DNA of 64,000 nucleotides from an uncultured Actinomycetota bacterium (GCA_963718235.1 CAVQYR010000002.1:640001-704000); one strand, 5' to 3'. Shown: positions 8,622 to 57,913, counted from the stretch's first letter. The notes: generated by a model not told the origin, from the letters alone. Numbers and translations are program-made.

Positions 8622-11144
8622 ATGACTGATGCGACCTTCGTGAACCCTGCCGTGAACCGCGCCGTAGAGGCCGCCGAGACCGCAGCGACCTCCGACCTGC
8701 CGGCGCGAGCCCAGTACATCGTCGTCGGCGGTGGCGTGATCGGCACGTCGATCGCCTACCACCTGATGGTGCACGGGGCCAAGGACGTCCTGCTCCTGGA
8801 ACGCAAGCAGCTGACGTCGGGTACCACGTGGCACGCTGCGGGGCTGATCGCGTCCGGGGGCTCGATGGACGAGGACTCCGCCTGGATGATCCGCTACTCA
8901 CGCGACCTGTACGACGGCACCCTCGAGGCCGAGACCGGGTTGTCCACCGGGTTCAACCAGTGCGGTTACCTGCAGCTGGCCACGTCGAAGCGACGGTTCG
9001 ACGCCTACCGCCGTGAGACCGACTTCCTTCGCGCGTACGGGATCGACAAGCACATCCTGTCCGTTTCGGAGGTCGCCGACCTCGTGCCGCACGTGCGCAC
9101 CGACGACGTGTTCGGCGGCTTCTTCACGCCGGACGAGGGTCGGGCGAACCCGGTCGACGTCGCGATGTCGATGGCGCGGGGGGCTCGGATGCGCGGTGCC
9201 CGGGTGGTCGAGAACTGCGAGGTCACGGGATTCCTCACGGCCGACGGCGTGTGCACCGGGGTGATGACCGAGCGCGGGCCGGTGGAGGCGGAGAAGGTGG
9301 TGCTCGCGTCCGGTCTCTGGGGGCGCGAGCTGGCTGCGAAGGCGGGCGTGCTCGCCCCGCTGCAGGCCGCCGAGCACGAGTACCTGCTGACCGAGCCCAT
9401 CGACTGGGTCGGCCCCGACTTCCCGGTCGTGGAGGTGCCCGAGGAGTACGCGTACTTCAGGGAGGAGGTCGGAGGGCTGCTCGTGGGTCTGTTCGAGCCC
9501 ACCGCCAAGGCGTGGTCGCTGGACGGCACCCCCCAGGACTCCGCGTTCGCGGTGTTGCCTCCCGACTGGGACCGGCTCACCCCGTTCCTGGAGACCGCGT
9601 TCAGCCGGTTCGAGGGTCTCGCCGATGCGGGCATCCGCACGCTCTTCGCCGGGCCGGAGAGCTTCACCGACGACATCGTCCCCCTGATGGGGGAGTCGCC
9701 CGAGCTGGCGAACCTGTACCTCGCCTGCGGCCTGAACTCGGTCGGGATCCTGCTCGGTGGCGGCATGGGCAACATGTACGCCCAGTGGCTGATCGAGGGT
9801 GTGTGCCCGGTCGACCTGGCCCACGTCTCGGTCGACCGAGCCCATGACTTCCAGGCCACGAGGCGGTTCCGTGAGGAGCGCACCGTCGAGCGGCTCGGCA
9901 ACCTGCTCAACGACGGCGCGTGGCCCAACCTGCAACCGCGCACGGCGCGCAACGTGCGGCTCTCGCCGCTGCACGACCAGCACGTGGCAGACGGTGCGTA
10001 CTTCGGCGTGTCAGCGGGTTGGGAGTACGCCGACTTCTTCGCCGGCCCCGGGCAGTCGCCCACCGTCGACTTCGGGTTCGAGCGTGGCATCGCCTTCGAG
10101 CACTCCGGCCGTGAGGCGCTCAACATGCGCGCGAACGTCGGTCTCGTCGACATGACCCTCATGAGCAAGTTCGAGATCGTCGGCCCCGACGCCTGTGCGC
10201 TGCTCAACCGGGTGTGCACCAACGACGTCGACGTCGAGCCCGGACGCCTGGTGTACACCACCTGGGTCAACGAGGAGGGCGGGATCATGGCCGACGGGAC
10301 GGTCACTCGTCTCGCCGAGGACCGATACCTGCTCATGGTCTCCGACGTGATCCACCGTCGAATCCCGTCGTGGCTGCGGAGGCACACCCGAGACGACGAG
10401 TTTGTCGTGGTCACCGACGTGACGTCCGGGTACGCCCTGTTCTCCTTGCAGGGGCCGAAGTCCCGTGAGCTGCTGCAGCGGCTCACGCCCGACGATGTGT
10501 CGAACGAGGCGTTCCCCTACCTCACTGCCCAGCGGATCGAGGTCGGGTACACCCCTGTGATGGCTCTTCGGGTCACCTACGTCGGTGAGCTGGGCTGGGA
10601 CATCGCCGTTCCCACGGAGTTCGCCGCGACGTTGTACAGACAGGTCCGCGAAGCAGGAGAAGACCTCGGGTTCCTCCCCAGTGGCATGGGTGCGCTGTCC
10701 AGCATGAGGCTGGAGAAGGCCTACCGCGACATGGCCCACGACATCGACAGCAAGGACAACCCGATCGAGGTCGGGCTCGGGTTCACCGTCTCCTGGGACA
10801 AGCCGGGCGGTTTCGTCGGGCGCGACGCGTTGCTCAAGGCCAAGGAGGCCGGGGCGCCGAGTCGTCGGCTCGTCCAGTTCCTGCTGGAGGACCCGTCGCA
10901 GGATCTCCTGGGTGGGGAGCCGATCTACCAGGACGGCGAGCACGTCGGCTACATGCGCACCGGAGCGTACGGCCACACGCTGGGCGGCGCGGTCGGCCTG
11001 GGGATGGTCGAGCGCGAGGAGCCGATCCCGGCGTCGGCCATCGCCGAGGGGTCCTTCGAGGTGCAGATCTACGGTGACCTGTACCGCGCCAAGGCCTCGC
11101 TGCGGCCGATGTTCGACCCGGACCGCGAGCGCCCCCGCTCCTAG
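8622..11144 (+). CDS. GcvT-family FAD-dependent oxidoreductase (dimethylglycine/sarcosine dehydrogenase-like)
   Basis: Rossmann VVGGGVIG, SGTTWHAAG (covalent-FAD His region), GPESFTDD, and a GcvT-like folate domain (LQGPKSR, RVTYVGELG, SMRLEKAYR). Confidence 0.9.
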   Translation: MTDATFVNPAVNRAVEAAETAATSDLPARAQYIVVGGGVIGTSIAYHLMVHGAKDVLLLERKQLTSGTTWHAAGLIASGGSMDEDSAWMIRYSRDLYDGTLEAETGLSTGFNQCGYLQLATSKRRFDAYRRETDFLRAYGIDKHILSVSEVADLVPHVRTDDVFGGFFTPDEGRANPVDVAMSMARGARMRGARVVENCEVTGFLTADGVCTGVMTERGPVEAEKVVLASGLWGRELAAKAGVLAPLQAAEHEYLLTEPIDWVGPDFPVVEVPEEYAYFREEVGGLLVGLFEPTAKAWSLDGTPQDSAFAVLPPDWDRLTPFLETAFSRFEGLADAGIRTLFAGPESFTDDIVPLMGESPELANLYLACGLNSVGILLGGGMGNMYAQWLIEGVCPVDLAHVSVDRAHDFQATRRFREERTVERLGNLLNDGAWPNLQPRTARNVRLSPLHDQHVADGAYFGVSAGWEYADFFAGPGQSPTVDFGFERGIAFEHSGREALNMRANVGLVDMTLMSKFEIVGPDACALLNRVCTNDVDVEPGRLVYTTWVNEEGGIMADGTVTRLAEDRYLLMVSDVIHRRIPSWLRRHTRDDEFVVVTDVTSGYALFSLQGPKSRELLQRLTPDDVSNEAFPYLTAQRIEVGYTPVMALRVTYVGELGWDIAVPTEFAATLYRQVREAGEDLGFLPSGMGALSSMRLEKAYRDMAHDIDSKDNPIEVGLGFTVSWDKPGGFVGRDALLKAKEAGAPSRRLVQFLLEDPSQDLLGGEPIYQDGEHVGYMRTGAYGHTLGGAVGLGMVEREEPIPASAIAEGSFEVQIYGDLYRAKASLRPMFDPDRERPRS

Positions 11145-11153
11145 AGCCGGAGG

Positions 11154-12494
11154 TCAGGGGGCCCGGGGTTCGCTGAGGACCTGTTGTCCAGCAGGGCCGC
11201 GGAAGGACAGGTCGCCGTTGCTGCCGCGGCCCGGATCCATGGCGACGACCCGCCAACCGCCGCGGCGGGGCTCGCGGTGGACCCGGTTGTGGTGCCAGCG
11301 GCACAACAGCAGCGCATTCGCCAGGTCGGTGGCGCCACCGTGCTCCCAAGGGATGAGGTGGTGGGCGTCGGTGTACCGGGGTGGGCGGGTGCACCCGGGG
11401 AAGCGGCACCCGGCGTCGCGCACGACGAGCGCGCGTCGCTGCTCGGGGGTGAACAGACGGGCTCGTCGTCCGACGTCCAACGGAGCCGAGTCCGGTCCGA
11501 GGAGCACCCGGCCGACCCGGGCGTCGCACAGCAGGCGGTGCACGTCGTCCATGGGTAGTCCGAGTGGGCCACCGGGGGCGTCATGGACCACCGCGAGACG
11601 CGCTCGGTGCAGGGTCAGCGTGTCGGGCGTGCACCCGGACCGGACAGGCCGATTGGGCAGCAGCGCGGTCATGGGCAGGACGATGTCGACGGCAGCCACG
11701 CTTCCGGACAGCTGCGGCAGCTGTTCGCTGCGCAGCGCCACCGCGGCGACCTCGATGAGCGCGTCTGCGCGGCGCTGCCCGGCCGAGCGTAGATCGCTGC
11801 TGTCGACCGGCACCATCAGCGGCGCCAAGGCAGCCGTGAGGGTGGCGGTGCCTTCGGCGTCCAGCAGTCCGTCGACCGCGGTCATGCCGTCCAACAACGG
11901 GGAGAGGGAAAGGTGCCGTCGGGTGAACTGCCGGTCCCGCTCGCCCAGCTCACCGTCGGGGTCGACCACATCCAGCAGCCTGCGGCCGGCCCTGCGCACC
12001 GCAGCGGGGTCGCTGTGGGCAGCCAGCTCGTGCAGCAGCGGCACCGCCTGCTCCAGCTCACCGGGCGCGTGGCGCAGCGGTCGCAGCGCGGAGCTCATCG
12101 CTCGCACGTGCTCGAACCGCAGCTCCCCGCGCCGAGTCGCCCCCAACGAGTCGGACAGCGGCTGCCAGTCCCGCGCCACCCGCACTCGGGACCGGGCGTC
12201 CCCGACCGACAACCGAAGCTCGTGATGCAACCACGCCGTGGTGTCGCGCTGCCCGGACATGACCGGGGCGTCACCGAGGGCGTCGAACGTGGCCAACGTG
12301 CGGGTGAACATCACCTCGGCCGTGTCGACGAGCTGGCGCAGCCCGGCCAACCACCCGGCTCGCGCGGTGGGGGAGACCGCGTCGTCGACGCGCTCCTCCA
12401 GCAGCCGCAACCGCTCGACGACCTCGAGCAGCTCGCGGGGCGGGTCGAACGGGACGCTCGTCGACCGGCCGAGCGGACCGGGTCCGGGAACCAA
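11154..12494 (-). CDS. DUF222 (13E12 repeat family) HNH endonuclease, copy 1
   Basis: QRRADAL, LLCDA..GRVLLG..S.PLDVGR, RDAGCRFPGC, DAHHLIPWEHGGATDLANALLLCRWHHNRVH; start uncertain (TTG 12494). Confidence 0.9.
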   Translation of the reverse strand: MVPGPGPLGRSTSVPFDPPRELLEVVERLRLLEERVDDAVSPTARAGWLAGLRQLVDTAEVMFTRTLATFDALGDAPVMSGQRDTTAWLHHELRLSVGDARSRVRVARDWQPLSDSLGATRRGELRFEHVRAMSSALRPLRHAPGELEQAVPLLHELAAHSDPAAVRRAGRRLLDVVDPDGELGERDRQFTRRHLSLSPLLDGMTAVDGLLDAEGTATLTAALAPLMVPVDSSDLRSAGQRRADALIEVAAVALRSEQLPQLSGSVAAVDIVLPMTALLPNRPVRSGCTPDTLTLHRARLAVVHDAPGGPLGLPMDDVHRLLCDARVGRVLLGPDSAPLDVGRRARLFTPEQRRALVVRDAGCRFPGCTRPPRYTDAHHLIPWEHGGATDLANALLLCRWHHNRVHREPRRGGWRVVAMDPGRGSNGDLSFRGPAGQQVLSEPRAP

Positions 12495-12656
12495 AGGAAC
12501 ACATCCTTCGAGAGGCTGGAGACTGAGCCCTCGCGCAGGTCGGCGACGGCCTGGACGACCGACTGCTCATCAACGTCTTGACCCAAGGTGCGCTCTGCCC
12601 GGCGACCGAGGTGGTGCCTCGATCCCGCGACTCCCACATGCTCGTCCAGTACCGCA

Positions 12657-12678
12657 AACCTACGCGGCACCTCTGACA
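12657..12678 (-). promoter_or_regulatory. RecA-NDp-like (PafBC-type) DNA-damage promoter upstream of DUF222-HNH copy 1
   Basis: Minus strand reads TGTCAG-AGGTGCCGCG-TA-GGT-T, matching TGTCRG-N10-TA-N3-T. Confidence 0.65.
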
Positions 12679-12736
12679 GTTCGTGTGCCAACAGGATCAG
12701 ATCCACAACCGTCGTATCGCTCGGAGAAGCGAACTG

Positions 12737-14105
12737 CTAGCTCCGGACGGGGAAGCGTCCCACCACACGTTCTATGTCGCCGGCGACGGCGAGCGTCGTC
12801 AGGTCGCCGAGGTAGGGGCCGACGACCTGCAGCCCCACGGGAAGCCCCGCCGGTCCGCCGGGGGCCAGCCCCACCGGGGAGTGCGGTCGCCGGAAGGTGA
12901 AGCAGCGTCGCCAGGGCCGGCCAGAAGAGCGAGGTCGGGCTGTACGGCCGAGCGACGGCGTCGACGTCGAGGGTCCGGTGCTCGGCGGGGCGATGGTCGT
13001 GCGGGAACGCCGCGACCGGAAAGGTCGGGAGCAGCAGCGCGTCGTACCGGCCGAAGAACTCCTGCATGGACTGCTGAAGGCCGAGTCGGCGCTCGTTGGA
13101 GGCGAGCCACCGGGTGTGCGTGAGCCCGCGGTCCTCGTCGACCACCGGCCGGAGCATCGTGGTGTAGAGGTCGGCGACGTCGTGCAGGTCGACGGGGAGG
13201 ACGGGGCTGCGGTCGATCGTGCAGCCGGCTCGCGCGACGGTGTCCATGGCCTGGCCCAGGACCGACCGCACCGACGTGTCGACCGGGGTGGCCGGGTCGT
13301 CCATGACGGCGGCCAGACGCCACGAGCGAAGCCCCTGCTTGGCCGGTGGCGGAAGCTCGAGGCGCCACCCGGCGGACTGAGGAGGGATCGGACCGCAGAT
13401 CACGGTGAGCGCCAGCGGCAGGTCGCCCACGCTTCGGGCCATCGGACCGACCACCCCCAGGTCGGGTTGGCTCAGCGACCCGGGAGGTCCGGGGATGTGG
13501 CCGCGTTGGGGCACCACGCCGTGGGTCGGCTTGTGCCCGGCGACCCCGCAGAAGCCGGCCGGGACCCGGATGGACCCACCGATGTCGCTGCCGAGCTCCA
13601 GCGACGTCAGACCAGCGGCGAGGGCGGCAGCGGAGCCCCCCGACGAGCCGCCGCACGTGCGGGTGAGGTCCCAGGGGTTGTGCGTCGTCCCGAACAGCTC
13701 GTTGGTGGTCTGCCAGTCGCCGGCCAGCGCAGGGGTGTTCGTCTTGCCGACGATGATCGCCCCGGCGTCGCGCAGCCGGGCCACGGCGACCGCGTCGGCG
13801 GTCGGCCGGTGGTCGGTGAGGACCGGGCTCCCGGCGGTCGTGCGCAGCCCCACCGTCTCGAAGGTGTCCTTGACGGTGATCGGCAGGCCGTGCAGGGGGC
13901 CGAGGAACCGCCCGCGGGCGAGCGCCTCGTCGGCCAGCCGGGCGGAGACCCGGGCCCGGTCGGCGTCGATGCTGACGACCGCGCGGACGACGTCGTTGAC
14001 CGAAGCGATCCGCTCCAGGTGCTCGGCCAGCAGATCTCGGGCACTGACCTGCCTGCTGCGCAACGCGGCGAGCAGGTCGCGTGCGGTCGACGTCGCGAGG
14101 TCCAC
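12737..14105 (-). CDS. Amidase signature family protein (apparent +1 frameshift near 12876-12879)
   Basis: GPLHGLPITVKD, GKTNTP, GGSSGGSAAA, GSDIGGSIRVPA; removing one base from the G4 run restores the C-terminus LPVGL...GLPVGLQVVGPYLGD ending at TAG 12737. Confidence 0.87.
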
Positions 14106-14156
14106 CGGGCCAGCCTCCCACTGTCGGTGTGACGGCCGAGCGCCTACCGTCGTGCC

Positions 14157-14660
14157 GTGGGCACGGAGCTGCTGGGTGATGCGCCGACGACGCGCTCGGA
14201 CCGACGCGGTGTGCCGAGAGCGTTGGTCCTCGCCGGTCTCGCTGTGGTGCTGTTGTCGACCCTGGTCGGGGTCGCTGTCTCTCGCGCTGGCCGTGACGTC
14301 GGTGCCGCCACCCCGGTCCTCGGCGGGCCGCTGCTCCGCCCCGACCGTTCCCACGACGTTCCCGTCTCCTGGTATGCCGTGCACGGCGTCGAGGCGCGCG
14401 CCCTGACCGTCGGCTACTGGGTGGGGGCGTGCTCGGAGCCGGGCGAGGTCCAGGTGGTCAGGCAGTTGCCACGGGTGGTTCTCGTCACCGCCACGTCCGT
14501 CGCCCCCCGGGCGGGGACGACGTGCGCGGGCGCGAGGACCGAGGTCAGCGACACCGTCGTCCTCGCCCTCCCGCTCGGTGACCGGGCGGTTGTCGACGCC
14601 CGTTCGGCCCAGCCGTTGCCCCGCCAGCGGCTGGACCGACGTCCCGCCGACGGCCTCTGA
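14157..14660 (+). CDS. Hypothetical membrane-anchored protein with a small two-Cys extracellular domain
   Basis: N-terminal hydrophobic helix, Cys pair, C-terminal LALPLGDRAVVD; TACCGT-6nt-GTG leaderless signature. Confidence 0.55.
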   Translation: MGTELLGDAPTTRSDRRGVPRALVLAGLAVVLLSTLVGVAVSRAGRDVGAATPVLGGPLLRPDRSHDVPVSWYAVHGVEARALTVGYWVGACSEPGEVQVVRQLPRVVLVTATSVAPRAGTTCAGARTEVSDTVVLALPLGDRAVVDARSAQPLPRQRLDRRPADGL

Positions 14661-14674
14661 GTCGCTCGCTGGCG

Positions 14675-16105
14675 TCAGTGGCCGGTGAGCCGACGCATCA
14701 CGTGGTCGCGCAGCCTGGCCGGTCGTCCGGTGATCTGCTCGCTCGCATCGATCGACGCGGCCAGCCGGATGCCCGCGTTGATCCCGATCCAGCGCAGCGG
14801 CTCGGGCTCCCACGCGGGGGAGTGGTGGCCCACCCAGGGCAGCGAGAGAAGCTCGTCGTCGTCCACCGAGCGCTGCCCAGACTCCTCTACGTCGACGAGC
14901 GCTGCCACGGTCCGACCGGCCAGGTTGGTCAGAGCGACACCGTCACCGGAGTAGCCGCCCGCGGTGATCACGTCGGTCGTGGTGTCGTGCACGACCGAGG
15001 GCCACCAGTCACGGGGGATGCCCAGCACGCCTCCCCACCCATGGGTGATGGCGGAGCCCACGAGCTGAGGGAAGAACTCGAGCAGGCTGAGTCGAAGCGC
15101 GTCGTAGACCGCCGGCGCCCGGTCGAAGCGAGGCGAGATGGCCGACCCGTAGTGGTAGGGGACGCCTCGCCCACCGAGGACGACCCGGTCGTCAGCCGTG
15201 CGCTGCGCATAGACGATGAAGCGTCGCTCGTCGTTGAACGTGTCGCGGTGCTGCCACCCGACCTCGTCCCAGAAGGACGTCGGAAGCGGTTCGGTGGCGA
15301 TCACCATCGAGTACATGGGGAGCAGCCGTCGGCGCTGACCGTCGAGCGTGCGGGTGTAGCCCTCGGTGGCCCGAACCACGTACTTCGCCGTGACATCACC
15401 CGACGGCGTGCGCGCCACGCGCGGCCCGATGCTCGTGACCGGCGTCTGCTCGTACACCGTGACGCCCATGCGCTCGACGACCTCGGCCAGGCCGCGCGCC
15501 AGCCGGGCCGGATCGATCGCCGCGCAGTGAGGCGTCCACAGGGCCCCGAACACCCCGTCCGCCGCGAGTCGCTCGCGGGCCTGGTCCCGGTCGAGCCAGA
15601 CCACGTCGTGCTGCTCCCACGCGTGCTCGTGCCGCAGCACCTCCTGGAGGCGGTCGACCTGCAGGGGGCTTCGCGCGAACCGCAGGTACCCGCCCTTGGC
15701 GAACCGCGCATCGATCCCTTCGGCAGCCGCCACGTCGCCGACCTCGTCGACGCACTGGTGGGCGGCCCGCTGCATGGCCAGCGCCGACGCGCGGCTCGAC
15801 CGCGCGGCGATGGTGTCCAGGTCGAGGGGCAGCAGGCCCGAGCACCAGCCCCCGTTGCGTCCGGACGCACCGAACCCAGCGGTCTCGGCCTCGAGGACGG
15901 CAATGGAGAGGTCGGGACGGCGACGGGCCAGGTAGTAGGCCGACCACAGACCGGTGAACCCGGCCCCGACGATGACGACGTCGAAGTCGGCGGGACCGGC
16001 CAGCGCGGCGCGCGCGGCATGCGGCTCGTCGCCGGGCAGTGAGTCCCACCACAGGGACAGCGATCGGTAGTCGCCGTGAGACCTCGGCGCTGTGCTCCTG
16101 TTCAC
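14675..16105 (-). CDS. FAD-dependent oxidoreductase, DadA/PuuB (gamma-glutamylputrescine oxidase)-like
   Basis: SLWW, DVVIVGAGFTGLWSAYYL, GFGASGRNGG, ATEGYT, WGGVLG, GGYSGDGVA, WEPEPLRW. Confidence 0.87.
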   Translation of the reverse strand: MNRSTAPRSHGDYRSLSLWWDSLPGDEPHAARAALAGPADFDVVIVGAGFTGLWSAYYLARRRPDLSIAVLEAETAGFGASGRNGGWCSGLLPLDLDTIAARSSRASALAMQRAAHQCVDEVGDVAAAEGIDARFAKGGYLRFARSPLQVDRLQEVLRHEHAWEQHDVVWLDRDQARERLAADGVFGALWTPHCAAIDPARLARGLAEVVERMGVTVYEQTPVTSIGPRVARTPSGDVTAKYVVRATEGYTRTLDGQRRRLLPMYSMVIATEPLPTSFWDEVGWQHRDTFNDERRFIVYAQRTADDRVVLGGRGVPYHYGSAISPRFDRAPAVYDALRLSLLEFFPQLVGSAITHGWGGVLGIPRDWWPSVVHDTTTDVITAGGYSGDGVALTNLAGRTVAALVDVEESGQRSVDDDELLSLPWVGHHSPAWEPEPLRWIGINAGIRLAASIDASEQITGRPARLRDHVMRRLTGH

Positions 16106-16145
16106 GGTGCTGGCCACCTCACTGTTCGGTGTCTCGCATGAGCGC

Positions 16146-16646
16146 TCACTGTTCGATGACGCGCATGAGCTTGGTGATGACCGGGTGGTACCCACGCCGG
16201 CGGTAGAAGCGTTCGGCGTCGTCGTTGCCGACCATGACCGCGATGAACGAAGCCCCGACCCCCATCGCGTGGAGCTCGGCGTCGACGGCGTCCAGCAACG
16301 TGCTCCCCAGCCCCTGCCCGCGCAGCTCCGGGGCGACGACGAGGGTCTCGACCTCCGCGTAGCGGTCCCCGGTCGGCCAGGTGTCGTCCGCCCCCCGGTG
16401 CATCGCGACCATCGCATAGCCGACGAGTCGCGACCCGGCGCGGGCCAGGACTGCGAACGCGGCCGGGTCGGTCAGGACCTGCTCGTACACGACTCGACGC
16501 AACGCCCACGACTGGTCTCGCTCGATCACCGGGCCGGGCCCGACCTGCTCGTGGTGGTCGAACAGGGACAGCCACAGGTCCGAGAGCTCGTCCAGCGCTG
16601 CAGCACCGAGCAGCGCGTCACCTCGCACCACCGACACGTCGACCAC
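16146..16646 (-). CDS. GNAT family acetyltransferase
   Basis: LVVAPELRGQGLGSTLL...GNDDAERFYRRRGY. Confidence 0.88.
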   Translation of the reverse strand: MVDVSVVRGDALLGAAALDELSDLWLSLFDHHEQVGPGPVIERDQSWALRRVVYEQVLTDPAAFAVLARAGSRLVGYAMVAMHRGADDTWPTGDRYAEVETLVVAPELRGQGLGSTLLDAVDAELHAMGVGASFIAVMVGNDDAERFYRRRGYHPVITKLMRVIEQ

Positions 16647-16689
16647 GAGGGTCCCTCCTTCTGGGTCACGTCAGGCTAGCGTCGACGCC

Positions 16690-39922: not shown

Positions 39923-39923
39923 C

Positions 39924-49655: not shown

Positions 49656-50423
49656 ATGGACGACCCGACGCTGGCGCAACGGTGCGCGCTCGCCCGACCC
49701 GCTGTGCTCGAGCGCTTCGGACAGGGCGCTCCCTGGCGTCGGACCGCGCGCCTTGCCGGTCAGCGGGTCGCGATCCTGGGCTCGTTCGACGAGCCATGGG
49801 CTGCGCAGGCCACCTTCACCGAGGGGTTTCCGGGCACCGCCGAGGTGGCGATGATCGTCGGCTGGCTGGAGTCGAACGGGCCAGGGCCGTTCATGCTGAC
49901 CGTTCGGGAGCGCTTCGCCGCCGACGACCGGTGGTCGGGTGCGGGTCTGGTGTCGGCGAGCCGCGAGCCGGTCTTCGCCGTCGAGGCTCGGTCCGCGCGG
50001 CTGTGGCCGGTCACCGAGCCCGAACGGCTGGTCCGGCCTGCCCACGACGTCGAGGAGTTCGTCGGCGCCTACAACGCGTGGGTGGGTCATGAGTCGGCCG
50101 TGCGCCAGCTGGTCGTGGCCGATGACCTGCGAGACCCGGACAAGGCCTTCCTCGTGCTCGACGTCGACGGGTCGGCCGTGGGCACGGCCATCGTCAGCTT
50201 CGCCGCCGGGACGGGCTACGTCTCCGGCATAGGGGTCGCCCCCGAGCACCGTCGGAAGGGCTTCGGCGGGGCCCTGACCCGCTCCGCGGTACGGGTGGCC
50301 GGCCGCGGCGGCGACCCGGTCTGGCTCCATGCCAGCGAGGACGGCTCCCCGCTGTACCGGCGGCTGGGGTTCCGGCAGGTCGACACCCAGGTGACGCTGG
50401 TGCGCCCGGTCAGGACCGGGTGA
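49656..50423 (+). CDS. GNAT family acetyltransferase
   Basis: IGVAPEHRRKGFGGAL…WLHASEDGSPLYRRLGF. Confidence 0.85.
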   Translation: MDDPTLAQRCALARPAVLERFGQGAPWRRTARLAGQRVAILGSFDEPWAAQATFTEGFPGTAEVAMIVGWLESNGPGPFMLTVRERFAADDRWSGAGLVSASREPVFAVEARSARLWPVTEPERLVRPAHDVEEFVGAYNAWVGHESAVRQLVVADDLRDPDKAFLVLDVDGSAVGTAIVSFAAGTGYVSGIGVAPEHRRKGFGGALTRSAVRVAGRGGDPVWLHASEDGSPLYRRLGFRQVDTQVTLVRPVRTG

Positions 50424-50482
50424 ATCCGACCTCACGCTGGTGTCCATGGCCAGAGCTCCCGCCACCTCGTCGGCGCGGGTCC

Positions 50483-51160
50483 TCAGAAGAGCTTGAGACC
50501 GACGTCGTCTCGGCCGCGCAGGGCGTCGTAGTCGAGCGTCACGCAGCGGATGCCGCGGTCCTGGGCCAGCACCCGCGCCTGCGGCTTGATCTCCTGTGCG
50601 GCGAGGACGCCGACCACGGGCTGAAGGTGCGGATCACGGTTGAGCAGCTCCAGGTAGCGGGTCAGCTGCTCGACCCCGTCGATGTCGCCGCGGCGCTTGA
50701 TCTCGACCGCCACCGCGCCGCCGAGGGCGTCCCGGGCCAGGATGTCCACCGGGCCGATCGCGGTCGGGTACTCCCGACGGACCAACCGCCAGCCCTCGCC
50801 CAGGGTCTGGATGTGCTCGGCCAGCAGAACCTGCAGATGGGCCTCGACGCCGTCCTTCTGCAGGCCGGGGTCGACCCCGAGCTCGTGCTGGGAGTCGTGG
50901 AGGACCTCCTCGACGGTGATCACGAGGCGGTCCCCGGACTTGGCGTGGGCGACCGTCCAGGTTCCAACCCCCGACGCGTCGAGGACGATCTCGCTGCGGC
51001 AGGGCGGGCTCATCCAGTTCAGCGGCTTGTACGCCCGGTCGTCGGCGTGGACGGAGACCGAGCCGTCGGCCTTCAGCAGGATCAGTCTGGTCGCCATGGG
51101 CAGATGGGCGGTCAGTCTGCCCTCGTAGTCGACGCTGCAACGAGCGATCACCAGGCGCAC
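50483..51160 (-). CDS. nucS: Mismatch-specific endonuclease NucS/EndoMS
   Basis: [59 protein letters not shown]. Confidence 0.97.
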
Positions 51161-51207
51161 GGGGGGAGCGTAGCGGCCCTCTGGCCATGGTCTGGGAGAC
51201 TTCCTCC

Positions 51208-52983
51208 ATGGCTCGCGAATTCACCACTGTCGGCGTCGTCGGTCTGGGCACCATGGGTGCGGGGATCTGTGAGGTGTTCGCCCGCCACGGTCTCGATGTC
51301 GTGGCCGTCGAGCGCAGCGACGAAGCCCTCCGGCACGGCATCGGTCACGTCGAGTCGTCGACCTCGCGCGCGGTCAAGCGCGGCAAGCTGGACGAGGAGG
51401 AGAAGCAGGCCATCTTCGACCGGATCACGTTCACGACCGACCTGGACGACGTGTCCGTGTGTCACCTCGTGGTCGAGGCGGTGCCGGAGAAGCTCGAGCT
51501 CAAGCAGCAGATCTTCGCCGAGCTCGATCGGATCACCGCTCCGGACGCGATCCTTGCGACCAACACCTCGTCGTTGTCGGTGACCGAGATCTCGGTCGCC
51601 ACCCACCGACCGGCGCAGGTGGTCGGGATGCACTTCTTCAACCCGGCGCCGGTCCTGAAGCTCGTCGAGGTGATCCGCACCGTGGTCACCGATGCCCAGG
51701 TGATCGACGACATCAAGGCGCTGGCGGAACGGCTCGGCAAGGTTCCGGTGGTGGTCGGCGACAAGGCCGGCTTCATTGCCAACGCCCTGCTGTTCGGCTA
51801 CCTCAACCACGCCGTGTCCATGTACGACCAGCGCTACGCCACCCGCGAGGACATCGACGCGGCCATGAAGCTGGGCTGCGGGCTGCCGATGGGACCGTTG
51901 GCGCTGCTCGACCTGATCGGTCTGGACACGGCCTACGAGATCCTCGACACCATGTACAAGCAGACCCGAGACCGCTTGCACGCACCCAGTCCGTTGATCA
52001 AGCAGATGGTCACCGCAGGGCTTAAGGGCCGCAAGACCGGCGGTGGCTTCTACACCTACGAGACGGCTGACTCACCCGTCGTGGTCGCCGACTCCCAGTC
52101 CACGGACACCGAGCCGGAGAGCGCCCCGGGTCGCGACGTCCAGCGCGTCGGCATCATCGGCTCGGGGACGATGGCGGTCGGCATCGCGGAGGTGTTCGCC
52201 AAGTCCGGGTACGACGTCGTCGTCCGGGCTCGCGGGACCGAGCAGATGGCGCGCGCCCGGCAGGCGATCGAACGGTCGCTGGAGAAGGCTGTGGTGCGCG
52301 GCAAGCTCACCGAGACCGAGCGCGACGAGACTCTGCGTCGCGTGATCGGGAGCACGTCGTTCGAGGACCTGGCTGACTGCGACCTGATCGTCGAGGCGAC
52401 GGTTGAGGAGCTCACCGTCAAGCAGGCGATCTTCGAGACTCTCGACGAGATCGCCAAGCCCGGAACCGTGCTGGCCACCACCACGTCGAGCCTGCCCGTG
52501 GTGGAGATAGCGGCAGCCACCCGTCGCATGCGCGACGTGGTCGGGATGCACTTCTTCAACCCGGCTCCGGTCATGAAACTGGTGGAGGTCGTGCGCACCG
52601 TCAACACGAGCGACTCGACGGTCGCGACGGTCCGCTCGGTCTGCGAGCGGCTCGGCAAGCATCCGGTGACGTGCGGTGACCGCGCGGGGTTCATCGTGAA
52701 CGCCCTGCTCTTCCCCTACCTGAACGACGCCGTGCGGATGCTCGAGGCCCACTACGCGACGTCGGACGACATCGACAACGCGATGAAGGTCGGGTGCGGG
52801 TACCCGATGGGACCGTTCGAGCTGCTCGACGTCGTCGGGCTCGATGTCGCCCTGGCGATCCAGCAGACCCTGTACCGGGAGTTCCGCGAGCCCGGGTTCG
52901 CCCCGACCCCCCTGCTCGAGCACCTGGTCACCGCCGGGTACCTCGGCCGCAAGAGCGGCCGCGGCTTCCGGGTGTACGCCTGA
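51208..52983 (+). CDS. Tandem-duplicated 3-hydroxyacyl(butyryl)-CoA dehydrogenase
   Basis: Two full modules: GLGTMG…GMHFFNPAP…GFIANALL and GSGTMA…GMHFFNPAP…GFIVNALL. Confidence 0.92.
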
Positions 52984-52988
52984 GCGAC

Positions 52989-53282
52989 GTGAGCCCTCGC
53001 CGCAACCGGAGCAGGCGCGACGATGCCGCGCTGGACCTCGGCCGGGTCGGTGCTGCGGAGACCGTCGAGGAATGGGACGGTCTGGACTGGGTCGTCCGGT
53101 CGTTGCGCGGCTCGTCGTCGACGAAGACCTACCGCTGCCCCGGCTGCGACCAGGAGATCGTTCCGGCCACTCCGCACGTCGTGGTCTGGCGGGCCGAGCC
53201 GCTGGTGGGGGCGGGACCGGAGGACCGCCGGCACTGGCACACCAGCTGCTGGCGGGCCCGGTCACGGCGACGACCACGGTGA
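52989..53282 (+). CDS. Small conserved actinobacterial Cys/His (putative Zn-binding) protein
   Basis: KTYRCPGCDQEI…HVVVW…RRHWHTSCW. Confidence 0.8.
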   Translation: MSPRRNRSRRDDAALDLGRVGAAETVEEWDGLDWVVRSLRGSSSTKTYRCPGCDQEIVPATPHVVVWRAEPLVGAGPEDRRHWHTSCWRARSRRRPR

Positions 53283-54022
53283 GTCACCTGATCCGGGCGA
53301 ACACCGTCCTGCCGGCAGTACGGGAGCCGATCACACTGAGCACCGTTGACGGGCTGACCCTGGTGGGCGAGCTGGCCACCCCAGTGGACCGGCCACCGAC
53401 CGCGACGCTGATCACGCTGCACCCGCTGCCCACCCACGGCGGGATGATGGACAGCCATGTCCTGCGCAAGGCGTCCTTCCGCCTCCCCGCCCTCGCCGAC
53501 GTCGCCGTCCTGCGGTTCAACACCAGGGGGACCGCATCGGCTGCGGGTCGAAGCGAAGGGACGTTCGACCACGGCGTGGGCGAGCTGAACGACGTCGAGG
53601 CGGCCGTTCGGTTCGCGACCGAGCGAGGGCTTGCCGGCCGTTGGCTGCTGGGCTGGTCGTTCGGCACCGACCTGGTGCTCGGCCACGGCCCTGACCGCAG
53701 GGTCGAGGGCGCGATCCTGCTGTCCCCACCGCTGCGCCAGGCCACCGACTCCCAGCTCGACCGTTGGGGGCGGTCGGGGCAGCCCCTCGTGGCCCTCGTC
53801 CCCGAGCTCGACGACTACCTGCGCCCACCAGAGGCGCGGGAGCGGTTCGCAGCCGTGCCCCAGGCCGTGGTCCGCGGGTTCGCCGACACCAAGCACCTGT
53901 GGGTGGGTGAGCGGGCGGTCCAACAGGTGCTGGACGCGGTCGTCGAGGTCGTCGCACCCGGCGCATCCCCTCTGCCCCGTGACTGGGACGGGCCCTACGA
54001 GGTCGCTACGGTCAGCACATGA
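53279..54022 (+). CDS. Alpha/beta hydrolase
   Basis: HPLPTHGGMMDS, RFNTRG, GWSFG nucleophile, DDYL, KHLWVG. Confidence 0.85.
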   Translation: MSHLIRANTVLPAVREPITLSTVDGLTLVGELATPVDRPPTATLITLHPLPTHGGMMDSHVLRKASFRLPALADVAVLRFNTRGTASAAGRSEGTFDHGVGELNDVEAAVRFATERGLAGRWLLGWSFGTDLVLGHGPDRRVEGAILLSPPLRQATDSQLDRWGRSGQPLVALVPELDDYLRPPEARERFAAVPQAVVRGFADTKHLWVGERAVQQVLDAVVEVVAPGASPLPRDWDGPYEVATVST

Positions 54023-54780
54023 CCACGTTCGTGCTCCTGCACGCGTTCCCTCTCGACTCCTCCATGTACGACGAGCTCCGCGACCCCCTGGGGGGAGTCT
54101 GCGACCTGGTGACCCCGGACTTCCCGGGATTCGGTGGACGGCCGCTGCCTGATGCCGCACCGTCGTTGGACGTCCTGGCCGACGCTGTGGCGTCGGAGCT
54201 CGACGAGCGTGGGCTGGACCGTGTGGTCCTCGGCGGTACGTCCATGGGCGGCTACACGACGATGGCGTTCCTGCGCAGGTACCCGCAGCGCGTCAGCGCC
54301 GTGGTGCTCATCGACACCAAAGCGACCGCGGACACGGGACAGGGCGCGGCAGGGCGTCGGGCGATGGCCGACCTCCTTGAGCGGGAGAACTCCACCAACG
54401 CCCTGCTCGAGGGCGTCTACCCCAAGCTGGTCGGACCGACCACGGTGGCCGAGCGTGCTGCCGTTGCCACCCGGATCCGGGATCTGGTCGAGGCCGCCCC
54501 CCCGCGGTCTGCAGCGTGGGCCCAGCGGGCCATGGCCGTCCGACCGGACTCGATCGGCACGCTGCGTGGCACCGAGGTGCCCACCTTGGTCGTGGTGGGG
54601 GAGGAGGACCAGCTGTCACCACCCGACGACGCGGAGGCGATGGTGAAGGCCCTGCCCTGGGGCAGGTTGTCAGTGATCCCACGCGCCGGGCACCTGTCCC
54701 CACTGGAGTCCCCCGGTGAGGTCGCGGGAGTGATCGGTGGGTTCCTGCGCTCCCTTGATGGTGCTGCGCTGAACGAGTGA
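54019..54780 (+). CDS. Alpha/beta fold hydrolase (enol-lactone hydrolase-like)
   Basis: LLHAFP, PDFPGFG, GTSMGG, GEED, AGHLSPLE. Confidence 0.88.
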   Translation: MTTFVLLHAFPLDSSMYDELRDPLGGVCDLVTPDFPGFGGRPLPDAAPSLDVLADAVASELDERGLDRVVLGGTSMGGYTTMAFLRRYPQRVSAVVLIDTKATADTGQGAAGRRAMADLLERENSTNALLEGVYPKLVGPTTVAERAAVATRIRDLVEAAPPRSAAWAQRAMAVRPDSIGTLRGTEVPTLVVVGEEDQLSPPDDAEAMVKALPWGRLSVIPRAGHLSPLESPGEVAGVIGGFLRSLDGAALNE

Positions 54781-54866
54781 GCCCGTTCGTGCTATCGCCG
54801 TCCGTCTCGCGTCAGCACTAGCCTCAGGTTCGGGGCCACCGGCTGGTGGCGGGGTGAGGATGGGCG

Positions 54867-56291
54867 TTGACCGGGGACTCCGTTCGGGTGCGCTGGCTGG
54901 CAGCGCCACCGCCGCTTGCCCTCGTGTCGGTGCTGCGCAGCAAGAACATCGAGCTCGTTGCCCATGATGCGCCGTTCGACCTCGTGGTCGTGGACGCCGC
55001 ATCGTGGCCGCTCGGCGCGGGGAGCTCGTCGTCGATGGCGCCTTCGGTGCTGTTGATCGACCAGGACGACCAGAGCGACCTCGATCGCCTCCTGGCGAGA
55101 CTGCCGGAGACGCTGGCGGTCGAGTCACTCACGACCCATCCGGCGTTGCTGGCCCGGCGGCTCCGACAACACGCGTCCGCGCCCGAGTTCGAGACCGACC
55201 CGCTCACCGGCGTGGGCAACCGTCGGGGTCTCCAACGGTGGCTGCACCGACACGACGGCCGGGAGATCGTCCTGATCGAGTTCGACATCGACCACATCAA
55301 GCACATCAACGACAAGTGGGGTTTCGAGGTCGGTGACCAGGCGCTGGCCCGGGTCGGGGCGTTGCTGGAGCAGCACGTGCCCCGTGACGCGTACGTCGCC
55401 CGGCTCGGCGACGACGAGTTCATCGTCGCAGCTCCCAGGGGCGAGACGTCGCCTGCCCTGTTGGCCGAGTTCTTGAGGCGTGGCGCGGCGCTGGACGCGG
55501 TTCCAGCCGATGCGCGCGCACCGGGAGAGAGTCAGGCAGTGGTGATGTGTGCGGGTGTCAGCAGTGGTGACGACCCTGACGTCCTGCTGCAACAGGCCCA
55601 CCTCGCCGTGGTGGCGGCGAAGGCACGCGGCCGCGACCGTGCCGTCGACTTCGAGGCGATGCGCCTGGCTGCGTCGGACTCCTTCGAGGAGCGCGCGTTC
55701 GAGGACATGACGGTCCTTGCGGCGCAGCGTGCTGCCGAGCTGATCACCAGTGGCGGTCGTCGGGTCTTCTCGTTGCTGCGCGACGAGGCCGAGACCGACC
55801 CGCTCACCAGCCTGCCCAACCGTCGCTACTTCAACAAGAAGCTCGAGTGGGAGGCGCACGCCGCGGCCGAGGCGGGTATCCCGCTGTCGGTGATCTGGGT
55901 CGACGTCGACCACTTCGGCCTGTTCAACAAGCGGTTCAGCTACGTGGTCGGAGACTCCGTGCTGCGTCACGTCGCCCAGACGGTGCGAGAGATCGTCGGC
56001 GAAGCGGGGTGGGTGGCCCGCTGGGGCGGTGAGGAGTTCGCGGTCGTCCTCGGCGACTGCCGGCTCGACGAGGCGCTGGTCGTGGCCGAGCGGCTGCGCG
56101 CCGGCGTCGAGGTGGAGGACTTCGTGCCCGAGGACCGTCGGCGCGTCGGCGTCACCGTGAGCGCAGGGGTGGCCCAGTGGTCACCGGACGAGTCGATCCG
56201 TGACCTGATCACCCGGGTGTCGGTCGGGGTCGCACTGGCCAAGGAGAAGCGCAACGACGTCCGAGCCGCTCCGGACCCGCTCGTCGGCTAG
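54867..56291 (+). CDS. Diguanylate cyclase-like protein with two tandem GGDEF domains
   Basis: Domain 1: TDPLTG..NRR, DIDH.K.IND, RLGDDEF; domain 2: TDPLT.LPNRR, DVDHF, RWGGEEF, VTVSAGVA; start uncertain. Confidence 0.85.
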   Translation: MTGDSVRVRWLAAPPPLALVSVLRSKNIELVAHDAPFDLVVVDAASWPLGAGSSSSMAPSVLLIDQDDQSDLDRLLARLPETLAVESLTTHPALLARRLRQHASAPEFETDPLTGVGNRRGLQRWLHRHDGREIVLIEFDIDHIKHINDKWGFEVGDQALARVGALLEQHVPRDAYVARLGDDEFIVAAPRGETSPALLAEFLRRGAALDAVPADARAPGESQAVVMCAGVSSGDDPDVLLQQAHLAVVAAKARGRDRAVDFEAMRLAASDSFEERAFEDMTVLAAQRAAELITSGGRRVFSLLRDEAETDPLTSLPNRRYFNKKLEWEAHAAAEAGIPLSVIWVDVDHFGLFNKRFSYVVGDSVLRHVAQTVREIVGEAGWVARWGGEEFAVVLGDCRLDEALVVAERLRAGVEVEDFVPEDRRRVGVTVSAGVAQWSPDESIRDLITRVSVGVALAKEKRNDVRAAPDPLVG

Positions 56292-56373
56292 GTCGGCTGC
56301 ATCCACAGGCTGGCCGGGTCGCTCGGTCGTCCACAGCTGCGCGGAGCCGGGGCCGATGAGCCGGTCCCCACCC

Positions 56374-56394
56374 TAGAGTCGAACACATGTTCGA
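56374..56394 (+). promoter_or_regulatory. LexA (SOS) box overlapping the -10 element and start codon of DUF222-HNH copy 2
   Basis: TCGAACACATGTTCGA (56379-56394) matches the actinobacterial consensus TCGAAC-N4-GTTCGA; -10 TAGAGT at 56374-56379. Confidence 0.88.
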
Positions 56395-57898
56395 TGACGG
56401 TGGCACGGGTGCGAGAGGCGGCCTCGCCGGCAGTGGGTGCGTGCCGTCGTCCGACCCGTGGCCGATGCGGGGTGAGGTCGTCGACGAGGTCGTCCGTGAA
56501 CCCGCCGTCTCGCATGCGGTGGCCGAGGTCCTGGCTGCGGTGCGCGGGCTGCGCTCTCGAGCCGGCGACGCCGTGACCGCCGAGGAACGAGCAGGCTGGT
56601 TGCGCGGTCTGCGTCAGGTGGCCGATGCCGCAGAAGTCGGGTTCACCGAGGTGCTCGGCGCGTTCGATGCCCACGCGGACGGTCAGACGCTGGCCGCGTC
56701 GCCGAGCACGGCGGCGTGGTGTCGCCGTCACCTCCGGATGGCCCACGGTGACGCAGCCGGCCGGCTGCGGCTGGCCCGGTTGGCGGCCACGGAACCGGCG
56801 ATGGGTGAGGCACTCGAGCAAGTTGCCGCAGGTGCGCTGCGCTATGAGCAGACACGGCAGATCGCGCGCAGCGTGCGCTGCCTCGACAGCCCGCTCGCGA
56901 CTCCGGAGGAGCAACGGCAGCGAGCCGAAGCCGTCGAGCTGCTGGCCACGCTCGCCACCACGGCCGACCCGGCGGTCCTCGCGGCTGCCGGCCGCCGCAT
57001 CGCCAACGTCGTGAACCCAGACGGCGTCCTGACCGTCCGTGAACGGCAGCTGGCTCGCCGGTACCTGCAGCTCTCGCCGTTGCTCGACGGGATGACGGCG
57101 TTGGACGGTCTGCTCGACGCGGAGGGGGCGGCGACCTTGTCTGCGGCGCTGGCGCCGCTGCTCGTGCCGGCCGGACCCGACGACTCGCGCAGCTCGGCCC
57201 AGCGTCGTGCGGACGCACTGGTCGAGGTCGCCACCCTGGCCCTGGACACCGGGCAGCTCCCGCAGCTGTCTGGGAGCGCAGCAGCCGTCGACGTCGTCGT
57301 GACGGCGGAGACGCTGGCCCGTTACGCCGAGCTGCAGCGCGGTACCGGAGACGAGCCGCCGCCGGTCGTTATCGACGCTCCCGAGGCGCCGCCGACCTCG
57401 GCCGTCGGGCACTGGCTGGCATCCGCCTGGGTCGGGCTGGTCGGCCCCAACGCCGGAGGTGTCGCCCCCGGAGTCCCGGGTGGCCCAGCGATGCTGCCGG
57501 TCGATGTCGTGGCCAAGTGGCTGTGCAACGGCAGCGTCGGAAGGATGGTGCTCGGTCCTGACTCCGTGCCGCTCGACCTGGGCCGAAGACAACGGTTGTT
57601 CACCGCGGAACAACGACGTGCACTTCTCCTGCGTGACGCCGGGTGTCGCTTCCCGGGGTGTGACCGACCGCCGAGGTACACCGACGCGCACCACGTGGTG
57701 CCGTGGACGTCCGGCGGAGCGACGGATCTGGACAACGCCCTGCTGCTGTGCCGCTTCCACCACAACCGGCTGCACGTCTCACCGGCCCGCGGTGGTTGGC
57801 TGCTCGAAGCTGTCGACCCGCACCGTGGCAGCAACGGGCCGCTGACCTTCACCAGTCCGGACGGCGTGACGCTGAGCAGTCCTCCTCGCGGACCCTGA
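56387..57898 (+). CDS. DUF222 (13E12 repeat family) HNH endonuclease, copy 2
   Basis: QRRADAL, PLDLGR, RDAGCRFPGC, DAHHVVPWTSGGATDLDNALLLCRFHHNRLH. Confidence 0.92.
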   Translation: MFDDGGTGARGGLAGSGCVPSSDPWPMRGEVVDEVVREPAVSHAVAEVLAAVRGLRSRAGDAVTAEERAGWLRGLRQVADAAEVGFTEVLGAFDAHADGQTLAASPSTAAWCRRHLRMAHGDAAGRLRLARLAATEPAMGEALEQVAAGALRYEQTRQIARSVRCLDSPLATPEEQRQRAEAVELLATLATTADPAVLAAAGRRIANVVNPDGVLTVRERQLARRYLQLSPLLDGMTALDGLLDAEGAATLSAALAPLLVPAGPDDSRSSAQRRADALVEVATLALDTGQLPQLSGSAAAVDVVVTAETLARYAELQRGTGDEPPPVVIDAPEAPPTSAVGHWLASAWVGLVGPNAGGVAPGVPGGPAMLPVDVVAKWLCNGSVGRMVLGPDSVPLDLGRRQRLFTAEQRRALLLRDAGCRFPGCDRPPRYTDAHHVVPWTSGGATDLDNALLLCRFHHNRLHVSPARGGWLLEAVDPHRGSNGPLTFTSPDGVTLSSPPRGP

Positions 57899-57913
57899 CC
57901 GCCAGCGTGAGGC

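Follow-up and report, generated by a model that had tools for sequence, protein, structure and literature searches.

The two DUF222-HNH genes and their neighbours

The window analysed here, a stretch of 64,000 nucleotides from an uncultured Actinomycetota bacterium, contains two DUF222-HNH genes. Copy 1, on the minus strand (11154-12494), is an intact ORF of 446 amino acids, with a TTG start as called and with the Cys and His residues of the HNH domain present. Copy 2, on the plus strand (56387-57898), is an intact ORF of 503 amino acids. Both match the DUF222 model of Pfam (118.1 and 115.3 bits for copies 1 and 2, respectively; gathering cut-off, 24.4) and, above the cut-off, the HNH model (PF01844). 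In BLASTP, the two share 233 of 464 residues (50%; E 1e-132), and the conserved blocks pointed out in an earlier sequence-only reading of the window, which had regarded the genes as paralogues, were recovered. From their Pfam domains, their HNH residues and their multicopy nature, the two genes belong to the known DUF222-HNH (13E12-type) family. The nearest of 5.8 billion proteins to copy 2 showed 62% identity by BLASTP (64% in the homologue alignment). The GC3 value of copy 2 was 0.81, and the genome mean was 0.90.

Each copy lies in a convergent gene pair, with the neighbours that had been described. Copy 1 faces a DAO+GCV_T gene (FAD oxidase and aminomethyltransferase; 8622-11144, plus strand), an orthologue of which was present in 18 of the 18 same-family genomes searched. 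Upstream of copy 1 is an amidase gene (12737-14150, minus strand), assigned by Pfam. This gene is frameshifted near 12860 in the assembly, and comparison of its C-terminus with that of a same-genus relative (G001, 99% complete) placed the stop codon of the ancestral frame at 12737-12739, not at 12660. Copy 2 is preceded by a GGDEF diguanylate cyclase gene (54867-56291, plus strand) and converges with a ccr-like gene of the zinc-ADH family (57914-59251, minus strand); these two genes and the DAO+GCV_T gene were assigned by ORF and Pfam.

The distances between the stop codons, 9 bp for copy 1 and 15 bp for copy 2 (spacer at 57899-57913, assigned to neither strand), are also as stated before. They carry no signal of their own: according to our GC3-based gene caller, from which all junction gaps and types are taken, 209 of the 491 convergent junctions of this genome are no wider than 20 bp, and the median gap is 28 bp. 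The CCC-TGA-CC sequence, with which both copies had been noted to end, was rejected as an element end. Its CCC encodes a homologous proline at the C-terminus, and TGA-CC surrounds the stop codon of many genes (698 of 2879, 24%).

Nuclease domain and overall fold

The C-terminal HNH motif has the zinc-binding Cys and His and the catalytic His and Asn residues of such nucleases: Cys420, Cys425, His435, His436, Cys455 and His459 are invariant in 47 homologues, and Asn450 is conserved in at least 90% of them. The structure model of copy 2 has a pLDDT of 82. Its HNH fold resembles those of TagI, McrA and IscB, with Z-scores of 6.8-8 (5.9-6.8 for IscB). For the DUF222 domain, Foldseek gave no match at an E-value of 0.001 or better, and VIA-align gave weak ParB/Spo0J/KorB-like matches with Z-scores of 5-6.5, a range that is common for helical folds.

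Among the PADLOC defence-system models, copy 1 matched no family, and copy 2 matched mREase_IV over 36 residues (E 1e-4), which cover the HNH core only. No meaningful model was found for the copies in NCBIfam. In Pfam, DUF222 and HNH were the only domains found, and RuvC was absent. An Rfam search of both loci gave no RNA family, the single match being unrelated and below threshold.

Putative DNA-damage switch at the start codons

The region of 95 bp that arrived with copy 2 on its 5' side (56292-56386, plus strand) contains two xTCCACAGx motifs (56301-56309 and 56329-56337) and a putative -10 hexamer, TAGAGT (56374-56379). The hexamer shares one base with a perfect LexA (SOS) box, TCGAACACATGTTCGA (TCGAAC-N4-GTTCGA; 56379-56394, plus strand), and the ATG at 56387 lies inside this box. 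Because of this overlap of hexamer, box and start codon, the mRNA of copy 2 is probably leaderless. It should be mentioned that this combination of LexA box and promoter at the start codon, overlooked in the sequence-only reading, is the most informative functional feature of the locus.

In copy 1, the corresponding box is decayed (TCGAAG-N5-GTTCCT, with an out-of-frame ATG inside; 12495-12511, minus strand). No LexA box with one mismatch or fewer was found for this copy, nor a -10 hexamer upstream of the decayed box. The decay of both the box and the original ATG suggests that copy 1 is the more eroded copy. Further upstream, a RecA-NDp-like promoter motif is observed (12657-12678, minus strand; TGTCAGAG-8 nt-TAGGTT). 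It has one mismatch to the consensus, tTGTCRgtg-8nt-TAnnnT (PMC5656591), and 14 matches as good as this one occur genome-wide on both strands.

The perfect TCGAAC-N4-GTTCGA sequence occurs nine times in the genome, six times on start codons of DUF222-HNH genes and once before lexA, and the recA gene has a LexA box with one mismatch. When 69 family loci were compared, a LexA box (one mismatch or fewer) was present at 29, the RecA-NDp motif at 19, both at nine and neither at 30. From these motifs and the published data for Mycobacterium tuberculosis, we infer that the genes would be controlled by DNA damage through a LexA box or a RecA-NDp-type promoter.

Empty sites and the insertion of copy 2

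In G001 and in a relative from another genus (G003), the GGDEF and ccr genes are directly adjacent. Their stop codons are separated by 34 and 42 bp, respectively, with no gene between, as compared with 1622 bp in the present genome (G000). Copy 2 is thus a real insertion of about 1.6 kb, and the empty sites proposed as a check of mobility exist in this case. For copy 1, no clean empty site was found: the slot is occupied by an unrelated alpha/beta-hydrolase gene in G001. No close DNA match to either copy was found anywhere in G001. In four metagenome runs, near-identical short contigs span both junctions of copy 2; no contig joining GGDEF to ccr, and hence no empty allele, was found in these runs, whose contigs are of low depth and have no bearing on absence.

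The inserted segment contains one ORF, with DUF222 and HNH domains, and units of this kind behave as if gained and lost without a transposase, as had been suggested. No integrase, transposase, tRNA or terminal repeat flanks copy 1 or 2, and no terminal inverted repeats were found at the boundaries of these copies or of five other loci. The alignment envisaged earlier defined no exact ends for copies 1 and 2, nor a target duplication or target motif, because the relatives' spacers have diverged beyond alignment. Sliding identity among G000, G001 and G003, which are highly diverged genomes, showed no divergence step that would mark an imported flanking tract around copy 2.

Turnover across relatives

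All of the 12 family genomes contain DUF222 matches (8-19 per genome; nine loci in G000), and 78 of the 121 genomes that were sampled across the class carry DUF222-HNH genes. The 69 loci correspond to 49 sites, 38 of which are occupied in a single genome only and 11 of which are shared. At a convergent site of another family member, in genus g4, four of 14 genomes are occupied and ten are empty. The c7 and c8 sites are common to G000 and G001. Copy 2, missing from two relatives, is not syntenically fixed. Several copies at the c3 and c5 sites, by contrast, keep their position in four genera, and their boxes are conserved; these copies agree equally with a retained host function and with a selfish element.

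Near-identical copies in G008 (97% and 98.5% identity) were considered as proof of fresh transposition, and this was rejected. Gene conversion between resident copies fits better, since one member of the pair (L098) lies at a site that in G012 holds a far more diverged copy and since the tract of identity stops at the stop codon. The 3' fragment of an SDR gene at the ends of some G008 copies was likewise rejected as a common target gene, as the 3' neighbours are diverse; it is better read as a flank carried by conversion.

Preference for convergent junctions

Lineage-specific (singleton) sites of the family are convergent in 17 of 37 cases, against 17% expected (p=5e-5). In a replication set of 58 loci from nine genomes of other families, 22 loci lie at convergent junctions; in the background, 69 of 397 junctions are of this type (p=1.6e-4). 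The loci in these statistics are not phylogenetically independent, and our gene calls conflict within some orthologous clusters; for four of the 11 shared sites the calls were tied. Convergent enrichment of other copies is seen in both samples, with an excess of about 2- to 2.7-fold. Nevertheless, tandem or divergent junctions account for the remaining 20 of 37 and 36 of 58 sites. The claimed targeting of convergent junctions stands as an excess and fails as a rule: the preference is real but partial, and strict targeting is not supported.

The same convergent excess has been published for insertion sequences and credited to selection rather than to targeting (Plague 2010, PMC2942039), which weakens the targeting proposed in the sequence-only reading. 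DUF222-HNH copies resemble insertion sequences as intergenic mobile DNA over-represented at convergent junctions, but have neither a transposase nor inverted ends. Moreover, in contrast to the selection pattern published for insertion sequences, divergent junctions are not clearly depleted (9/68 and 9/58, against about 17%).

Proposed mode of spread and alternative explanations

The observations are best explained, with a probability of roughly 0.6, if these genes are single-gene, transposase-free nuclease elements of the 13E12 type, switched by DNA damage and gained at intergenic sites, the convergent excess being due to survival. The unit would be about 1.5-1.6 kb, in which a short promoter region is followed by one ORF and nearly no 3' tail. 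Repression by LexA, or a RecA-independent damage promoter, would restrict the nuclease to the time after DNA damage. Over evolutionary time, units would be gained at intergenic sites, persist, undergo gene conversion among copies and decay. Copy 2 would have been gained in this lineage, into a convergent GGDEF-ccr spacer of 34-42 bp, together with a -10 hexamer, a LexA box and a leaderless start of its own. The convergent excess finds its simplest explanation in the survival of insertions that leave promoters and operons intact, to which some real target choice, for example of palindromes at gene 3' ends, might be added. As for the insertion chemistry, we infer cleavage by the HNH domain followed by recombinational repair.

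An element that recognises gene 3' ends or convergent junctions, through terminator- or REP-like palindromes, would make the bias mechanistic. Besides the excess in two independent samples and the lack of a clear depletion of divergent junctions, such as pure selection would predict, the youngest clear family points in this direction: in G051, seven of 11 copies (88-93% identity) are convergent, four or five of the 11 have a REP-like palindrome 10-25 bp past the stop codon, and one arm of this palindrome occurs 105 times as compared with three for the reversed control. Such palindromes concentrate at gene 3' ends anyway, so that this association may be indirect, and no palindrome is present in the 9- and 15-bp spacers of copies 1 and 2. 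In addition, one and the same convergent junction, flanked by a 5'-3' exonuclease gene and a helY-like gene, has been filled in three different ways. In G000 and G001 it carries a c7-type element, in G008 a c1/c2-like one and in G005, in the opposite orientation, a 38%-identical element; in G003 it is empty. Against this, chance predicts about one shared junction, by our rough estimate for 21 genome pairs with about 10 copies in each genome and about 2900 junctions. Furthermore, the 3' neighbours have no gene family or C-terminal sequence in common, the empty spacers show no common motif, and most sites in both samples are not convergent. Active targeting thus seems unlikely. One form of it, in which the SOS-induced HNH nuclease cuts palindromic, terminator- or REP-like DNA past genes and an autonomous element is copied in by recombinational repair, is equally doubtful; if true, it would give a mechanistic account of the 2- to 2.7-fold excess and of the repeated, independent occupation of the same junction across genera.

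The genes might instead be vertically inherited nucleases of the SOS regulon, their patchiness reflecting differential loss. The c3 and c5 sites, with their conserved LexA boxes, and the sharing of c7 and c8 with G001 agree with this. For copy 2, such resident host genes would require two independent clean deletions, because the site is empty in both the same-genus and the other-genus genome, with only the short spacer left. The four-occupied, ten-empty pattern in g4, the 8-19 diverged copies per genome, the predominance of single-genome sites (38/49) and the atypical GC3 of copy 2 also speak against residence, which we consider improbable, more so than active targeting. Less probable still is a reading in which the genes, not being autonomous, are carried as passengers of prophages, integrative elements or insertion sequences. 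The inserted segment consists of the ORF and 95 and 15 bp only, copies 1 and 2 lack the flanking integrase, transposase, tRNA or terminal repeats of such carriers, and the repeat units in G008 and G051 run from no more than about 90 bp before the ATG to the stop codon.

Comparison with known systems

The damage-switched, single-gene elements preferred here are most similar to the REP13E12/13E12 genes of M. tuberculosis, a family of DUF222 proteins that includes Rv0336, Rv0515, Rv1702c and Rv2100 (PMC3381160). Both are multicopy DUF222 families (here with HNH), both have the LexA operator sequence TCGAAC-N4-GTTCGA at gene starts, and in both some members have a RecA-NDp promoter motif instead of, or in addition to, the LexA box. 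The wiring itself is therefore not new, having been published for the M. tuberculosis family. The present host differs in belonging to another actinobacterial family, with a genome of 3.2 Mb and 70% GC, and the copies are far more diverged (about 25-50% identity to each other). The present data document alleles with an empty site as well as a bias in junction type; our literature search found no report of either for 13E12.

Free-standing HNH homing endonuclease genes of phages are also lone intergenic HNH genes without a transposase, present or absent at an otherwise conserved junction, as copy 2 is. In contrast to these, the DUF222-HNH genes are found at many chromosomal sites that are unrelated to each other, and not at a single cognate site; they have, at the N-terminus, a large helical DUF222 domain without a clear counterpart among solved structures, and show no co-converted flanks around copy 2 as far as such highly diverged genomes reveal them. 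The HNH domains of IscB/OMEGA and Cas9 have a similar fold, but the DUF222-HNH genes lack RuvC and an associated RNA family, and the 95 and 15 bp are their only non-coding DNA.

In actinobacteria, DUF222-HNH (13E12) genes rank among the most common multicopy genes, and our literature search found no paper on their spread or function. The present analysis adds a clean insertion, the site of which is empty in two relatives, and puts numbers on a preference for convergent junctions that is partial but was replicated. This preference alone establishes no new mechanism; it provides a testable hypothesis, target choice versus selection. In addition, judging from the motifs, the LexA and RecA-NDp wiring of M. 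tuberculosis seems to extend to a distant lineage with small genomes.

Genes and Their Neighbors

Copies 1 and 2, the two putative 13E12-type nuclease genes, are ORFs of 446 aa (11154-12494, minus strand) and 503 aa (56387-57898, plus strand, 1512 bp), respectively. These positions were given correctly in the sequence-only reading, and the conserved blocks it listed are present in the alignment of the two proteins, which is full-length at 50% identity (233/464, E 1e-132). Both show Pfam DUF222 followed by HNH, with DUF222 scores of 118 and 115 bits (cut-off 24.4). Copy 1 is flanked by a DAO+GCV_T gene (8622-11144, plus strand) and an amidase gene on the minus strand, whereas copy 2 is flanked by a GGDEF gene (54867-56291, plus strand) and a ccr-like zinc-ADH gene (57914-59251, minus strand). 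These neighbors, and the stop-to-stop spacers of 9 and 15 bp to the convergent one, are borne out by the ORFs and Pfam.

Neither the 9- and 15-bp distances nor the common CCC-TGA-CC ending carries weight as a signal. The window corresponds to G000:C2:640001-704000. In G000, the genome carrying both copies (3.17 Mb, 70% GC, two contigs), 209 of 491 convergent gaps are 20 bp or shorter and the median is 28 bp, by our own GC3-based calls (2879 genes). The proposed shared ending resolves into a common stop context, TGA-CC (698/2879 genes), preceded by a homologous proline codon, CCC.

The amidase gene is frameshifted near 12860 in the assembly (positions 12737-12900 of the window): its final 44 residues are in another frame, with the stop at 12737-12739, and are 84% identical to the orthologue in the same-genus relative G001. 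Either the gene has become a pseudogene or the assembly contains an indel. The GGDEF gene is lineage-restricted; in relatives of genus g4 it is missing from this place, and the alpha/beta-hydrolase gene (54019-54780) is the direct neighbor of ccr.

In an AlphaFold model from 47 homologues (pLDDT 82), the C-terminal part matches the HNH nucleases TagI (Z 8.0), IscB, and McrA (both Z 6.8). For the long, helical N-terminal region, the only matches were weak ones to ParB/Spo0J/KorB DNA-binding domains at Z 5-6.5, a range common for helical folds. Pfam detected no RuvC domain or transposase in either copy, no terminal inverted repeats were found at the copies, Rfam gave no RNA at either locus, and PADLOC and NCBIfam gave nothing past the HNH core.

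Insertion Status of the Two Copies

A DNA search of 30 relatives showed the GGDEF and ccr genes directly adjacent in G001 and in G003, which is of another genus in the same family. The distance between their stop codons is 34 bp in G001, 42 bp in G003, and 1622 bp in G000 (95 bp, the 1512-bp ORF, and 15 bp). The three spacers are too diverged for alignment, so that the exact ends and any target duplication are unreadable. At 0.81, the GC3 of copy 2 is below the genome mean of 0.90. A search of 5.8 billion proteins gave a closest homologue with 62% identity by BLASTP (64% in the homologue alignment), and its best paralogue in G000 is copy 1, at 50-51%. The empty sites, the low GC3, and the remoteness of homologue and paralogue together show that copy 2 was gained in the G000 lineage, and not by a recent internal duplication.

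The insertion picture is less clean for copy 1, which appears to be the more decayed copy. The predicted empty site is seen for copy 2 only: the amidase/GCV_T slot of G001 is filled by an unrelated 310-aa alpha/beta-hydrolase gene, and the amidase-GCV_T adjacency is not kept in other relatives. No close DNA match to either copy was found across G001 (99% complete).

Distribution and Turnover of the Family

PF02720 has matches in 78 of 121 genomes of a class-wide sample and 8-19 matches per genome in 12 family genomes; tblastn gives nine DUF222/HNH loci in G000. These nine and 60 of the 62 loci from six well-assembled family genomes make a set of 69, which leaves out two G012 loci and the fragmented assemblies G001, G004, G007, G011, and G014. 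None of the conclusions depends on the unpublished genome G024. Grouping by flank similarity gave 49 sites. Thirty-eight are in a single genome, both window copies among them, and 11 are shared: those of copies c3 and c5 are common to four genera, and c7 and c8 are also common to G000 and G001. The family is therefore a mix of old syntenic and lineage-specific copies.

A copy in G008 (genus g4) at a convergent SDR/ABC-like junction is present in four genomes of that genus (G008, G007, G013, and G014) and absent in ten. The ten empty junctions have spacers of 0-49 bp, and the G008 element lies 14 and 5 bp from the two stops: the look of being wedged between stop codons arises because convergent spacers are themselves short. 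Near-identical copies in G008 (97% and 98.5%) are better read as gene conversion of resident copies, because a far more diverged copy occupies, in G012, the site of one of the 97% pair and because the identity tract stops at the stop codon. In a G008 subfamily (loci L101, L098, L104, L096, and L097), the 5' end consists of 2-4 tandem units of ~33 bp (core GTCGAGTGCACATCAGGTTGACG), ~90-200 bp upstream of the ORFs; a RecA-NDp-like promoter then follows.

Preference for Convergent Junctions

G000 has 491 convergent, 491 divergent, and 1895 tandem junctions; that is, 17% are convergent, and convergent spacers make up 17% of intergenic bases. The background in the fetched loci was 111/644 flanking genes with convergent flanks. 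Among 68 evaluable family loci, 23 were at convergent, 9 at divergent, 15 at tandem co-oriented, and 21 at anti-oriented positions (p=7e-4 for convergent). The corresponding numbers were 17, 3, 10, and 7 for 37 evaluable singleton sites (p=5e-5), and 18, 4, 11, and 11 with one count per site (p=1.8e-4; 44 sites, as four shared sites were tied in calls and one was at a contig edge). A replication set, 60 of the matches listed from nine closed or nearly closed genomes of other families, gave 22, 9, 16, and 11 for 58 evaluable copies (p=1.6e-4; background 69/397 junctions). All these counts rest on our own gene calls and mutually related loci, and the replication set includes some near-duplicates.

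The convergent preference is real and replicated, about 2- to 2.7-fold, but partial: the predicted excess is present (17/37 and 22/58 against ~17%), but most sites are not convergent. The downstream neighbor is convergent in 44/68 family copies, which looks stronger than it is, because a random junction with random orientation gives ~50% and not the 29-34% of ordinary genes. In the replication set the value was 33/58, not significant against 50%.

Targeting or Tolerance

According to PMC2942039, all kinds of insertion sequences are over-represented at convergent junctions in 68 of 116 genomes, 46 of which also have a divergent-junction deficit, and the author ascribes the pattern to selection. 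Since insertion sequences show the same convergent excess as DUF222-HNH genes, selection on tolerated insertions is the default explanation here. The deficit differs: divergent junctions are not clearly depleted of DUF222-HNH genes (9/68 in the family, 9/58 in the replication set), which leaves room for an element that itself chooses 3'-3' junctions. Repeated occupancy of a 5'-3' exonuclease/helY-like convergent junction does so too. Its occupant is of the c7 type in G000 and G001, is 38% identical and reversed in G005, and is c1/c2-like in G008, while G003 has nothing there; by our rough estimate, chance alone would give about one junction shared among these genomes. The c5 site likewise holds an element whose orientation in G008 is opposite to that in four other genomes.

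In G051, from another family, 7 of 11 copies (88-93% identity) are at convergent junctions. In all 11, the left boundary is sharp and falls 90 bp before the ATG, and the unit ends at the stop codon; the order of features is a CTGACG-N3-CGTCAG hairpin, a -35 hexamer, an SOS-like box, and a -10 hexamer. A REP-like palindrome lies 10-25 bp after the stop in 4-5 of the 11; it is ~40 bp long at L178, L182, L184, and L185, and G051 has 105 occurrences of one of its arms but 3 of the reversed control. Against targeting, most DUF222-HNH sites are not convergent, the 3' neighbors belong to no common family, and the empty spacers have no common motif. Thus, of the proposal of a transposase-free element inserting at 3'-3' junctions, the preference stands, in partial form, and targeting is not shown to be its mechanism.

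At the exonuclease/helY-like junction of G000, a questin-oxidase-like gene (L145:4230-5300; G000:C1:1771729-1772799) separates the c7 element from the helY-like gene. It is absent there in G001, where the c7-type element abuts helY.

Predicted Damage Switch at the Start Codons

A feature overlooked in the sequence-only reading is a predicted switch at the start codon. The ATG of copy 2 (56387) is enclosed by the perfect palindrome TCGAACACATGTTCGA (56379-56394), which shares one base with a -10 hexamer, TAGAGT (56374-56379). TCGAAC-N4-GTTCGA is the published mycobacterial LexA consensus. The start of copy 2 is thus predicted to be leaderless, with a putative LexA box. A whole-genome scan of G000 gave nine perfect TCGAAC-N4-GTTCGA sites: six on DUF222-HNH start codons, one upstream of lexA and next to a further site with 1 mismatch, one intergenic, and one intragenic. 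The recA gene has a 1-mismatch LexA-type site.

The sole box of copy 1, TCGAAG-N5-GTTCCT (12511-12495), is decayed and has no -10 hexamer; the ATG inside it is out of frame because of the extra base. Copy 1 also has a one-mismatch match (12678-12657) to the RecA-independent damage promoter tTGTCRgtg-8nt-TAnnnT, a consensus taken from PMC5656591; only 14 such matches occur at that stringency on both strands of G000. Among the 69 family loci, 20 have the LexA box only (at most one mismatch), 10 the RecA-NDp motif only, 9 both, and 30 neither.

Several further features were observed around these boxes. Two xTCCACAGx motifs precede the copy 2 box (56301-56309 and 56329-56337), and the 7-mer GTCCACA is in 12/69 upstream regions against 0/69 in-ORF control regions. 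The c3 element has three tandem copies of TCACTCGCCCGGG ~170 bp upstream of its LexA box (G000:C2 ~152916-152960). The perfect box at G000:C1:1568109-1568124 is in a divergent intergenic region, and its ATG opens an uncalled reading frame (MFETS...). The recA gene (G000:C1:2229993-2232125), with the 1-mismatch box upstream, encodes a 710-aa product containing an insertion which, by eye, we take to be intein-like.

Standing of the Two Copies

A literature search covering a minority of subscription journals gave no paper on how DUF222/13E12 genes spread or which targets they prefer. Copies 1 and 2 are ordinary members of the DUF222-HNH/13E12 family, and copy 2, as judged from the comparison with relatives, is a documented lineage-specific insertion.
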